Assembly (NCBI GenBank): GCA_046262595.1
Contig: JBHEMM010000004.1
Coordinates: 21,761 to 82,783 of the forward strand
DNA: 61,023 nt
Reading direction: 5' to 3'
DNA from: Vulcanimicrobiaceae bacterium
Lineage (GTDB): Bacteria > Vulcanimicrobiota > Vulcanimicrobiia > Vulcanimicrobiales > Vulcanimicrobiaceae
Made by a program: the position numbers. Of this stretch, positions 23,501 to 26,500 are shown piece by piece (the stretch's first letter is position 1; every line of letters begins with the position of its first letter).

Positions 23501-26500
23501 ACAAGCAGCGGGGGCACCATCGTGCCGGCAGCCAAACCGTCTAAGCCGTCGGTGAGGTTCACCGCATGCATCGTACCGCTCACGGCGAGAATTCCCAAAG
23601 CCAGCCAAAGCCAGTGCGGCACGGTCAGCACGTACGCGCCGGTGCGAAACAGCACGTCGGCGTTGATATTGCCCTCGACGCCGAAGCGCAAGAACATCAC
23701 GGCAGCAAGCGCAGTGAGGAGATATTTGGTGCGCGCGCATCCCGGCGTTCTTGCCGGAGCGGATTGCCTGGTAGTCGTCGGCGAAGCCGACGAGCGCACA
23801 AGCGGCGACAAGCAGCAGGAGCGCCATCGCTGCGCGATCGGCGTGCAGTGCGAGCAGCGGCACCAGCGCCGCCACGAATGCGATGCCGCCCATCGTCGGC
23901 GTGCCGGATTTTTTCTGATGCGTCTGCGGCGCATCTTCATACGCATGCTGGCGCAGTTGGAAGCGCCGCAGCAGCGGAATCAGGGCGGCACAGCAGAGCA
24001 CGCACACAAGGAAGCCGGCGGCGGCGATTTCCAGGAACAGTGCAACGGTCAAGCGGGCCGCTCCGCGAAGAGCGGGTTGGGGCCTTCACCGCGCCATTTC
24101 AATACCACGATGGGCGTCTGTTCGTCGCCGTTGCCGTGGGGATTGGCGAGCAGCGCATACTCCACGCTGCGCCGGTTTACGCCCCGAGATGCGCCGAGCA
24201 CTTTTGCCTTTTGTAGATCGTTCGCGTCGACGACCGTGCACGCGATGCCGGTGCGCTCGCACACGGATTGCGCGAACGCGTCGGGACGCTGCGGCGCGAA
24301 GACGATATTGCGTTCGAAGGGCGGCAACGTCCCCGTGTAGCCGTCGATCGCCGTGATCGCTTCCCCGAGGATCTCATAGAACATGCCGCGGCGCCCGAAC
24401 GCGCGGCCGATCACCTGCATCACCGCCGCGAAAAGAACTTTGCCGGGACCGGTTTGGTCGATGACGATCTGCAGCGACTCGGGCTGGCTCACGGTCGCCA
24501 GCGCGCCCGCATGCCGGGAAAGCACGTACGCCAGTTTACCCGGGCGCACGAGCTCGGCCGGCACCGACTGGCCTTGCGCGATCGCGACCGCGGTTTCCGA
24601 AACGGCGAGCACGTCACCCGGGCGCGCGATGCCGCGCACGCAGCGCGCGATCAGCGCCGTCAGATCGTCGCGGGGGGCGACCAGCGGCGTGCGCACGGGA
24701 AGCGCGGCGATGCCCTCGGGGAGTTCGGGGCGCACGACACGCAGCTGTTTCACGCGCTCGCCGCCGGAAGAAGGCGTTGCACGATCTGCTCCATCGCGTA
24801 CTTGCGGGAACCTTTGAGCAGCACCGCATCACCCGGGCCGGCGTGCAGGCGGATCCAATGCGCGGCCTCCTCGTTGGTCTCGTACCGCACCAGGCGCGTA
24901 CGCGGAAATCCCGCCGCAAGCGCGCCTCCGATGAGCGCGCCCGCAAACTCGCCGCCCGCCAGAACCGTGTCCATATGGACCGCCGCCGCCTTCGCTCCCA
25001 CGCGCTCGTGCATCTCGTGGGCTTGGGGCCCGAGTTCGGCCATGCCGGCAAGCACGGCGATGCGGCGGCGCGCCGGTTCGGCGGCGAACGCATCGAGCGC
25101 GGCGAGCATGCCGCTTAAGTTCGCGTTGTACGCGTCGTAGATCAAACGGGGCCCGCTGCTGAGCGCGATGCTTTCGAAGCGTCCGAGCGGTAACGTCAGT
25201 CCGCGAATCGCGCCCACAATCTGCTGCTCTGAAACGCCGAGCAGCAGCGCGCCGGCAATCGCTGCCGCCAGGTTCATGCGGTTGTGTTCGCCCGGCAGCC
25301 GGATATCGACCGCGTACGCCGAGGGTTCGCGCTCCGCGGTGAGCACCAACGTTTTTGAATCGGGAATCCATACTCCGGGCGCCCCCGCGGGTACCGTTCC
25401 GAACCACAACGGCGGCGTGGGCAAGCCGCCCGCGCGCGCCAGCGATTCGGCGTCGTTCGCACCGAGCACCGCTTGCGCACCGGAGGCGAACAGTCCCCAC
25501 TTGGTTTCGGCCAGACGTTCGCGCGAACCGAAGATCTCCAGATGCGCCTCGCCGATATTGGTCAGCACGCCGACATGCGGACGCGCGATCGCAACAAGCT
25601 CGGCAATATCGTGTACGTGCCGCGCGCCGAGCTCCACGACGACAAAACGGTGCAACGGCTGCGCGCGCAGCAGCAGTTTGCTCACGCCGATCTCGTTGTT
25701 TTCATTTCCGGGCGTCGCCAGAACGGCGTCCTCACCGAATGCGGCGGCGAGCAACTGCGCGAGCAGATGTTTGGTGGTGGTCTTGCCCGCACTGCCCGTA
25801 ATGGCAACCACGCGCCCTTCAAACAGTTCGCGGTTCGCCGCGGCAAGATCCATGTAAGCGCGCTTGGTGTCTGCGACAACCAGGGCGGGAGTATCGTCGG
25901 GGATGACGCCCGCGTCGTCGACCACGAGCGCAGCCGCGCCGCGCTGAATGGCTTGCGGGACGTACGCATGTCCGTCGAAATGCTCGCCGCGCAGCGCTAA
26001 AAACGTCTCTCCCGCAACCAGCCCGCGCGAGTCGGTGGCGATTCGCAAGGCGGCCGGAAAACGCGATTGGCGATACACCGCTCCGCCGGTCGCGGCACGC
26101 GCCCGCTCGATCGAAAGCATCATGCGCCTGCGGCCGTGCGCGAGGCAATCGCTTCGCGCACGACTTGGGCGTCGTCGAACGGCAGCACGTCTGCGCCGGC
26201 GATCTGATAGTTCTCGTGCCCTTTGCCCGCAACGACCACGATGTCGCCGGGCTGCGCGGCGGCGATTGCGGAAAAGATCGCGCGGCGCCGGTCGAGCTCG
26301 ACGGCGTAGCGCGCGCCGGTCATGCCTTGCGTGATCTCTAGCGCGATTGCTTCGGGCGCTTCCGTACGCGGATTGTCCGAGGTGACGTACGCGTAATCCG
26401 CAAGGCGGGAGGCCGCCGCGCCCATGAGCGGGCGCTTCCCGCGATCGCGATCGCCGCCGCAGCCGAAGACGAGCAGCACGCGCTGCGCCGTTAACTCGCG

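Follow-up and report, generated by a model that had tools for sequence, protein, structure and literature searches.

Within the division and cell-wall (dcw) gene string of a Vulcanimicrobiaceae bacterium (source genome G000, 89.7% complete), a gene lodged between murF and mraY encodes a 234-aa protein with the fold of CofE, labelled X here, which is not a CofE orthologue and belongs instead to a separate clade of the CofE-like superfamily. In the Vulcanimicrobiia, a class of soil bacteria, X is soluble, has 234 aa, is translationally coupled to the genes on both sides and is under strong purifying selection; its family is tied to peptidoglycan (PG) metabolism in several phyla. As regards its activity, X may well be an NTP-dependent amide ligase modifying a carboxylate of a PG precursor, a reading in which we infer catalysis, nucleotide and both substrates alike. 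Coordinates are given as positions in the window, i.e. the whole stretch of 61,023 nucleotides that was analysed.

Position and conservation in the dcw gene string

The survey's finding described an ORF between murF and mraY whose start overlaps the murF stop; this arrangement was confirmed, and the stop of X overlaps the mraY start as well (Table 1). The downstream gene is indeed mraY, with the correction that it is split in the window by a frameshift: an ORF at 23405-24052 carries MraY signature 1 together with positions 3-96 of TIGR00445, positions 94-318 fall in a different frame, and reading of the sequence locates the shift in a run of GC dinucleotides near 23725-23740. In the related loci checked by coordinates (e.g. 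L007), both mraY parts are in one frame.

Table 1. Features of the dcw gene string in the window
Feature	Position	Strand	Evidence or remark
ddl	16132..17079	-	Dala_Dala_lig_C and _N
murB	17086..18081	-	MurB_C + FAD_binding_4
murC	18051..19427	-	Mur ligase domains
murG, approximate start	19424..20540	-	Glyco_transf_28 N + C, residues 445-794 of ORF 19424-21865
ftsW, approximate start	20536..21700	-	FTSW_RODA_SPOVE 365.9 bits, residues 344-694 of ORF 20536-22632
murD	21699..23105	-	MurD-like_N + Mur ligase M and C domains
mraY, split over two frames	23095..24052	-	N part in frame 23405-24052, C part in 23095-23946
TTGA overlap, X stop/mraY TTG start	24049..24052	-	Sequence read; mraY start at 24052
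X	24049..24753	-	234 aa, GTG start; CofE-fold, PG-associated CofE-like family; PF01996 + fold match
GTGA overlap, murF stop/X start	24750..24753	-	Sequence read
murF	24750..26123	-	TIGR01143 341.1 bits vs cut-off 288.6; three Mur ligase Pfam domains
murE	26120..27586	-	Mur ligase domains
ftsI-type penicillin-binding protein	27588..29375	-	Transpeptidase + PBP_dimer domains
rsmH (mraW)	29818..30693	-	Methyltransf_5, 337 bits
mraZ	30709..31221	-	MraZ domain, 104.8 bits

The claim that this position is fixed in the class was upheld on a wider sample, as X is flanked directly by murF upstream and mraY downstream in 28/28 class genomes and the order murE-murF-X-mraY-murD recurs in 80/80 further loci of relatives, with the murF stop no more than a few bases from where X starts in these 80; the family member has neither flank in any of 18 loci from other classes of the phylum. 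A genome search also bore out that X is single-copy in G000. Over the same 10 pairs, dN/dS amounts to 0.12-0.21 for X vs. 0.20-0.31 for murF, and 58 positions, many of them polar, are invariant among 80 clade sequences of 62-100% identity, including D47, E53, D137, D176, N178, D179, N204, N208, D210, E211, Q212 and T213.

Two other explanations of the locus were discarded. Open frames of 705-809 aa at X in G029, G079, G011 and G071 suggested a MurF-X fusion, but murF is in another frame wherever the locus was parsed (G029/L088; 13 class loci), a check that covered loci other than the minus-strand ones of G079, G011 and G071; in-frame MurF-X fusions number 0/80 in the further loci, the singleton P0124 being the only fused case. 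Replacement by X of alanine racemase, Ddl or glutamate racemase was rejected too, all three enzymes being present in G000.

Relation to CofE and to coenzyme F420

Membership of the CofE fold was established by two structural comparisons of an AF2 model of X (pLDDT 90.2, pTM 0.87), with Archaeoglobus fulgidus CofE again the sole PDB match, as had been claimed. With Foldseek, the only PDB matches at E<=1e-3 are five chains of this enzyme (E 1.2e-9 to 6.1e-9, TM 0.54-0.59), the next match having an E of 1.0; with VIA-align, over 48,161 chains, 2phn_A stands out (Z 14.9, rmsd 3.3, 185 residues aligned, i.e. nearly the whole length of X) and the next Z is 4.2. At the sequence level, X scores 41.8 bits as a protein against Pfam PF01996 (F420_ligase), passing the gathering threshold of 25 over HMM positions 2-81 of 218 only, and the partial row of 38.8 bits reported earlier was recovered with the same score over the same positions. 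A PDB search is insignificant by the X sequence alone (E 0.12) and reaches E 3e-7 with a profile, while profile-profile comparison of the X family with eight true CofE of the phylum gives a probability of 98.6% (E 5e-15, 210 columns). In the N-terminal "GD..(V/L)..QGR-like" segment, the two are homologous. CofE itself uses a nucleotide triphosphate to activate a carboxylate and then forms the amide, according to passages of two papers (PMC10861534, PMC8498797), and this chemistry is presumably shared by X.

Beyond this common fold, X is distinct from CofE, with about 20-24% identity, scores under every curated CofE cut-off and altered motifs. The curated profiles match it only at residues 18-101, with 26.9 bits vs. 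a cut-off of 180.65 for the equivalog TIGR01916 and 25.8 vs. 274 for NF009809. Conversely, an X-family profile gives 187-299 bits for the 56 members tested vs. 22-36 bits for the eight true CofE; X of the window, itself among the 22 sequences behind this profile, scores 293 bits and falls within the clade. In the tree, the X family and true CofE are split with a support of 100/100, and the stem of the dcw form of X is a long branch (0.94). Where the eight CofE read SKAEGR, CANAG[IV]DxSN and SDSFGRPWR, the aligned stretches of X are AIAQG(Q/E), FYxxxG...IDGYTGTxPP and VDANDL; two alignment methods differ as to the Asp of X that matches the CofE "D[ST]" motif, and place the counterparts of the CofE metal ligands two positions apart. 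The Arg of QGR/EGR, kept in CofE and in other X lineages, has given way in the 80 clade sequences to E (49 of them), Q (30) or A (1). Nor is X a Mur ligase, as no Mur_ligase_M or Mur_ligase_C Pfam match was obtained at E<=0.01. CofE is a dimer with its active site at the interface, adding L-glutamate to F420-0 with GTP and Mn; a homodimer prediction for two X with GTP and two Mn scored 0.00, which speaks neither for nor against a dimer of the CofE kind.

The occurrence of X is independent of the F420 pathway (CofC, CofD, FO synthase), and its genomic partners are cell-wall genes. In G000, no match to CofD was obtained, the CofH-like matches are MqnC and MqnE, and CofC, which the survey had left unsearched, gives 25 bits at best. 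The 25/81 phylum genomes with a true CofE (over cut-off) are exactly those with a CofD (E<=1e-53): neither is found in the 28 class genomes, and other classes have both in 25/53. A lack of F420 genes hence does not extend to the phylum as a whole. The X family is present in 78/81 phylum genomes, 24 of the 25 F420 makers included, rather than in every genome sampled as first stated; the three exceptions are G013 (75% complete), G021 (67% complete) and G072, in which the match is only a cross-match to its true CofE. Taken with the profile scores and the tree, the co-occurrence of CofE and CofD strongly supports both the earlier view that X does not act on F420 and the reading of its clade as unconnected with this coenzyme.

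Partners of X relatives in other lineages

Members of the family number in the thousands and are spread over Bacillota, Actinomycetota, Cyanobacteriota, Chloroflexota and Eremiobacterota. The relatives returned by a genome-contig scan with an alignment of fewer than 22 sequences were all close ones from Eremiobacterota. At about 40% identity, X relatives are fused or adjacent to a MurNAc-L-Ala amidase or fused to other domains (AsnB-type amidotransferase, TPR, M20 and others). Among 30 longer representatives picked from 150 listed, there are six fusions to Amidase_3, four to AsnB-type amidotransferase, three to MraY and one each to MurF, polysaccharide deacetylase and M20 peptidase. The amidase-X pair, as fused or adjacent genes, was found in 72 metagenome loci, among whose other genes are those for a MurE-type ligase, SpoVB/MurJ-like flippases, D-Ala-D-Ala carboxypeptidases, PAP2, NlpC/P60 and SLT; the partner amidase has its zinc and catalytic residues intact and no signal peptide. 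Besides, a decarboxylase lies within 3.5 kb of the pair, mostly within about 30 nt, in 25/64 loci (Orn/Lys/Arg type in 9, pyruvoyl arginine type in 16), on Bacillota-like metagenome contigs that are mutually related and outside the present lineage; these neighbours hint that one substrate may be an amine.

Elsewhere in the phylum, outside this class, the protein has a length of about 400 aa, starts with a membrane anchor and is encoded away from mur genes: 17/18 loci are devoid of a cell-wall neighbour and ddl is adjacent in the remaining one (overlapping in G009). A single N-terminal anchor is present in 17/19 long forms, and K/R residues are richer on its C-flank in 15/17. This charge distribution and the lack of any hydrophobic segment in the amidase, AsnB and TPR fusions point to a cytoplasmic location, which an NTP-using enzyme requires. 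The long form has a conserved neighbour "Y" without Pfam family, for which there are only weak beta-propeller-like leads (scores 0.81-0.84); one query found no homologue of it in G000.

The tie to PG is reinforced by these partners in other phyla, fused or adjacent, which comprise MurNAc-L-Ala amidase, AsnB-type amidotransferase, cell-wall hydrolases, MurE and Ddl. Of the function proposed at the outset, the PG or envelope part is thus strengthened independently of the dcw position, and the amide-bond ligase part is still read from the fold only.

Candidate functions of X

The mechanism envisaged for X is modelled on its only characterised relatives, CofE and FbiB: an NTP would activate a carboxylate as an acyl phosphate, which an amine would then attack to yield an amide. 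The carboxylate donor might be the MurF product and MraY substrate UDP-MurNAc-pentapeptide, or else, on the inner membrane face, lipid I/II, with the D-Glu alpha-carboxyl, the free carboxyl of the diamino acid and the lactyl carboxyl as candidates, and the amine might be an amino acid or a di-/polyamine. Against this reading stand the altered CofE motifs, the replaced Arg of QGR/EGR and the scarcity of cell-wall neighbours in other classes of the phylum. MurT/GatD and AsnB/LtsA-type enzymes alter stem-peptide carboxylates. The job proposed for X, NTP-dependent amide bond formation on a muramyl peptide, would resemble that of the Mur ligases (MurC-F, Mpl) and MurT/GatD, from which it differs by an unrelated fold devoid of any Mur ligase domain.

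In a bolder version of the ligase reading, which is conceivable though rather doubtful, the X family would be a third, unrecognised class of PG amide ligases, of CofE fold, standing beside the Mur ligases and the ATP-grasp enzymes and adding amines to a stem-peptide carboxylate of the cytoplasmic precursor. These amines could be di-/polyamines from the neighbouring decarboxylases or small amino acids then amidated by the fused AsnB; the family could thereby fill the gene gap behind the D-Glu substituted with polyamine or glycine in walls of Terrabacteria, and would be a fixed core dcw gene in Vulcanimicrobiia. In Negativicutes, cadaverine or putrescine is carried on the D-Glu alpha-carboxyl of PG, as stated in portions of three sources (PMC10628300, PMC5020339, bioRxiv 10.1101/2021.05.31.446380), and no gene is assigned to this linkage in the portions of the literature searched. 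The parallel lies in a stem-peptide carboxylate-diamine amide and in amine-making decarboxylases as operon partners of X relatives; by contrast, no SLH domain match was found in G000 (at 89.7% completeness), so that an OmpM/SLH tether reading a polyamine-modified wall was rejected and the polyamine idea is unsupported by this genome. A pyruvyl transferase is present in G000. No Negativicutes name appears among 120 listed X relatives. In the literature searched, no paper joins CofE with murF or mraY, PF01996 or CofE-like proteins are not mentioned outside F420 work, "diamine transferase" gives no match, and gamma-glutamyl ligase combined with Veillonella, Selenomonas or Micrococcus luteus gives nothing relevant among the matches listed. 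For the only cultured relative, an excerpt of PMC9758169 points to no published PG chemistry.

Other roles compete with that of a ligase acting on biosynthetic precursors. It is unlikely, though worth considering, that X serves PG recycling or salvage, either taking the role of Mpl, by which a recycled peptide (or else some other amine) is joined again to UDP-MurNAc at its lactyl carboxylate, or acting on amidase-released fragments. The intact, signal peptide-less amidase of other phyla would suit such a role, as would the M20 peptidases, NlpC/P60 and D-aminopeptidase adjoining X relatives; in passages of PMC10861534, the substrate carboxylate of CofE is itself a lactyl one. Furthermore, no Mpl-like MurC paralogue was detected in G000 (one tblastn query, genome 89.7% complete), and the ligase product would feed MurF, encoded just upstream. 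Yet the dcw operon does not normally contain genes for recycling, and the decarboxylase neighbours would be left unexplained. Less probable still is a non-catalytic adaptor or regulator: a CofE-fold protein that is no longer active as an enzyme, and binds either a nucleotide or the nucleotide precursor, would pass the MurF product on to MraY at the membrane. The loss of the conserved Arg62 in the clade, the long stem branch to the dcw form, the membrane tether of other classes and the TPR-fused relatives are consistent with it, as are the occasional single-frame X-MraY and MurF-X ORFs (L027, P0124, P0185, P0228, P0259), but the latter are singletons and could be sequencing frameshifts. Most of the invariant residues, moreover, are acidic or polar, and they cluster in motifs common to distant lineages, which is an active-site pattern.

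A similarly low probability attaches to X being an enzyme of unrelated metabolism, e.g. one that conjugates polyamines or amino acids to a soluble metabolite, and a mere passenger of the dcw operon in the class. The variable non-cell-wall contexts in 17/18 other-class loci and the decarboxylase neighbours would fit, and citrate synthase and hisBHA, which come after the dcw string in the window, count against a wall role; on the other side stand a position fixed in 108/108 class loci, with overlapping stop and start codons, and repeated independent fusions to cell-wall domains. As for a true but divergent CofE glutamylating F420-0 taken up from outside, fold and Pfam family would agree with it, but it is scarcely credible given the genuine, quite different CofE found beside X in the same phylum, the lack of both CofD and CofE in 28/28 class genomes, and the abundance of X relatives in gut Clostridia and Limnochordia MAGs.

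The set of enzymes for PG synthesis in the cytoplasm is held to be complete. Here an extra enzyme-like gene, more strongly conserved than murF, stands between murF and mraY throughout a class, and its family receives the name "coenzyme F420 ligase" from current pipelines. If the ligase reading of X is true, an undescribed wall modification or salvage step would come to light, together with a large-scale misannotation by which F420 capacity is inferred where there is none, and wall modifications without assigned genes would gain a concrete candidate. With a relative, Vulcanimicrobium alpinum, in culture, the question is open to experiment.

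Fold of X and its separation from CofE

The 234-aa protein encoded between murF and mraY within the dcw (division and cell wall) operon, hereafter X, is matched by the Pfam F420_ligase profile at 41.8 bits over HMM positions 2-81 of 218 only, and by the curated models of CofE, the F420-0:gamma-glutamyl ligase, at 26.9 and 25.8 bits for cut-offs of 180.65 and 274. With its AlphaFold2 model (22-sequence alignment; pLDDT 90.2, pTM 0.87), Foldseek retrieves five PDB chains at E<=1e-3, all of them A. fulgidus CofE, the next match standing at E 1.0; in a separate structure search over 48,161 chains, CofE reaches Z 14.9 (rmsd 3.3 Å, 185 residues) and all others Z <=4.2. 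Profile-profile comparison with eight true CofE, drawn from genomes of the same phylum (Vulcanimicrobiota), gives a probability of 98.6% (E 5e-15; 210 columns, 22% identity). As these three comparisons all give CofE, the assignment of the modelled protein to the CofE fold is safe.

X is not CofE. A profile of the X family scores 187-299 bits on the 56 members tested vs. 22-36 bits on the eight true CofE, and a maximum-likelihood tree splits the two with 100/100 support along its longest branch. Across the phylum, 81 genomes were sampled, 28 of them from the class Vulcanimicrobiia, and a protein search with X gave a strong match in 78; a 79th match (G072) is a mere cross-hit to the real CofE of that genome, and the two genomes devoid of any match are 75% and 67% complete. 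True CofE (TIGR01916 above cut-off) is present in 25 of the 81, exactly the same genomes as CofD (E<=1e-53) and all in four families of other classes, X being also present, at a different place, in 24 of them; neither CofE nor CofD was found in any of the 28 class genomes. In the genome carrying the window (89.7% complete), the CofD search gave no match and CofC 25 bits, while the CofH-like matches correspond to two proteins of menaquinone synthesis, MqnC (449 bits, cut-off 428) and one that is MqnE-like, and this explains the sub-threshold CofG/CofH matches there.

Position and constraint in the dcw operon

In the window, a complete division/cell-wall gene string surrounds X on the minus strand, in the order mraZ, rsmH, a small ORF, an ftsI-type PBP gene, murE, murF, X, mraY, murD, ftsW, murG, murC, murB and ddl. 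As read from the sequence, the murF stop overlaps the X start (GTGA) and the X stop overlaps a TTG start of mraY (TTGA). The split of mraY over two frames probably stems from an indel made in assembly or sequencing and does not mark a pseudogene, because the relatives checked by coordinates keep both parts in a single frame. Beyond ddl, the string does not continue with ftsA/ftsZ.

Coordinates of X, of its partners and of related loci (L, numbered loci of relatives or metagenomes)
Feature	Position	Strand	Remarks
X	24049-24753	minus	open frame, 234 codons, GTG start
Codon of residue 62 of X	24568-24570		
mraY	23095-24052	minus	split over two frames; shift at GC-dinucleotide run near 23725-23740
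Genes beyond ddl	12019-16081	minus	305-aa ORF without Pfam family, followed by citrate synthase, hisB, hisH, hisA
MqnE-like and MqnC genes	G000:C31:6317-9258 (L004, L005)		adjacent; genome carrying the window; futalosine route to menaquinone
Soluble neighbour of the long form	L129:3036-5303, L130:7341-9500, L131:3921-5381, L135:7190-8899, L136:7295-8932, L137:3660-5390, L139:3392-5299, L141:8575-11058, L144:7318-9033, L145:7341-9056, L146:7281-9203		
Locus with phosphodiester glycosidase (NAGPA)	L133:296-3508 (G009), L132:4276-6636 (G004)		upstream of the long form; different families
Joined X-MraY ORF	L027:7010-8668		
Decarboxylase-amidase-X operon	L203:6415-9683, L195:8013-10025		examples

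The order murE-murF-X-mraY-murD is found in all 28 sampled class genomes, each with a single X copy, and in 80/80 loci of relatives from public genomes (62-79% identity), where the murF stop lies only a few bases from the X start and in-frame MurF-X fusions number 0/80. Among 80 dcw-clade sequences, 58 positions are invariant, including R21, T22, D47, E53, E67, R70, Q90, E92, D137, Y139, T140, T142, D176, N178, D179, N204, N208, D210, E211, Q212 and T213. Pairwise dN/dS is 0.12-0.21 for X vs. 0.20-0.31 for murF over the same ten pairs, these values being rough since dS is near 1-1.4. Residue 62 is the Arg that ends the 'QGR' motif in other X lineages (EGR in CofE), whereas the dcw clade has E in 49 of the 80 sequences, Q in 30, A in one and R in none; this loss warns of a possible change of substrate, or even of catalysis, in the dcw form.

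Joined single ORFs also occur, X-MraY in L027, P0185, P0228 and P0259 and MurF-X in P0124 (P, numbered homologous proteins); all are singletons, so that each may be a real fusion or a frameshift error. Two contigs labelled Verrucomicrobiia and Acidiferrales, L040 (DATKGB010000134.1) and L072 (DATJUC010000121.1), bear a murF-X-mraY block of the Eremiobacterota type (68-72% identity to X), probably through errors of binning or labelling.

Relatives in other classes and beyond the phylum

In other classes of the phylum, X occurs as a long form of about 400-435 aa, in which a hydrophobic N-terminal segment (17/19 long forms) and some 170 residues without Pfam family precede the X domain. By a crude measure, K/R lie mainly on the C-terminal flank of this segment in 15/17, which, following the positive-inside rule, implies a membrane-tethered protein whose predicted enzyme domain is cytoplasmic. 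Neither murF nor mraY was found near the long form in 18 loci from 18 genomes. In 11 of these loci the adjacent gene encodes a soluble protein of 490-830 aa without Pfam family, homologous from locus to locus, mostly transcribed divergently from the long-form gene and giving weak beta-propeller-like leads; one query found none in the genome carrying the window (89.7% complete). A NAGPA gene stands upstream of the long form in two genomes of different families, and in one of them (G009) ddl sits in between, its end coinciding with the long-form start. All dcw forms group in one clade of the tree (100/100), which has a long stem (0.94) and falls outside the long-form clade (98/93), within an unresolved polytomy; the dcw form may thus have arisen by divergence or by transfer.

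A profile-free exhaustive search of 1.84 billion representatives returned 697 proteins at E<=1e-3, 401 of them at E<=1e-10. Few members carry a name, and those that do come from MAGs labelled Bacillota, Limnochordia, Oscillospiraceae, Clostridium, Acidimicrobiia or Spirochaetia, on which the taxon names rest; Atlas clusters extend the family to Actinomycetota, Chloroflexota, Cyanobacteriota and Caldisericota; among 14 control genomes, PF01996 matches in three archaea only. Pfam scanning of 30 of the 150 homologues listed, picked mostly for length, revealed fusion to an N-terminal MurNAc-L-Ala amidase (Amidase_3) in six, to an AsnB-type glutamine amidotransferase/asparagine synthase in four, TPR repeats in three, continuation into MraY in three, and MurF, polysaccharide deacetylase, GNAT, adenylate kinase and M20 peptidase in one each; nine have no second Pfam domain, and in several of these the X domain is the C-terminal part of a protein of about 400 aa.

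Used as queries on metagenome contigs, the six amidase-X fusions returned 72 loci, 64 with the X domain. Genes called in 19 by a simple longest-ORF/GC3 rule form one amidase-X ORF of 519-571 aa (5/19), an amidase gene (about 300 aa) directly followed by an X gene (about 210-230 aa; 11/19) or an irregular arrangement (3/19). The amidase retains zinc ligands and catalytic Glu and is devoid of signal peptide; about 110 aa at its N-terminus form a further, unassigned domain. A SpoVB/MurJ-like flippase lies 3' of the pair in eight loci, PAP2 upstream with D-Ala-D-Ala carboxypeptidase downstream in 11, and further neighbours include MurE-type ligase, NlpC/P60, SLT, deacetylase and sporulation genes. 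In nine loci, the gene of an Orn/Lys/Arg decarboxylase stops some 10-60 nt short of the amidase, an M20 peptidase often lying beyond X, and in 16 a pyruvoyl-dependent arginine decarboxylase lies within 3.5 kb, the tightest starting about 25-30 nt after X; either type is present in 25/64 loci, counting short flanks and loci related to each other. The compact decarboxylase, signal-less amidase and X operon, often with M20 peptidase, belongs to Bacillota-like contigs (L156-L227).

A predicted ligase of muropeptide precursors

In the only characterised relatives, CofE and FbiB, GTP activates a carboxylate as acyl phosphate, which an amine then attacks (PMC10861534, PMC8498797). By analogy, X would most likely be an amide ligase whose target is a muropeptide-precursor carboxylate at the cytoplasmic face of the membrane, because its domain appears cytoplasmic or membrane-tethered, because it sits between the enzyme completing UDP-MurNAc-pentapeptide and the one moving it onto lipid, and because its partners cut or build muramyl-peptide bonds or, for others, make amines. 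The literature searched yielded nothing on a CofE-like protein linked to cell-wall genes.

The amidase partner of the relatives favours an Mpl-like salvage ligase, a reading considered unlikely for X. It is improbable that X connects MurF with MraY as an adaptor devoid of catalysis, and there is equally little chance that it is an enzyme of unrelated function carried along in the operon; that X is a true CofE acting on imported F420-0 is very unlikely.

Regarding the substituent that such a muropeptide-precursor ligase might attach, the description of V. alpinum reports MK-9 and a thin layer of peptidoglycan, without wall chemistry (PMC9758169), and no SLH domain was found in the genome carrying the window (89.7% complete). 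In Negativicutes, cadaverine or putrescine is documented on the D-Glu alpha-carboxyl of peptidoglycan (PMC10628300, PMC5020339, bioRxiv 10.1101/2021.05.31.446380). No publication found in the literature search names a gene for this diamine attachment. In older biochemical work, lipid intermediates are described as receiving glycine or diamine in an ATP-dependent reaction, and an AsnB fusion would suit a substituent of the 'glycine amide' type.
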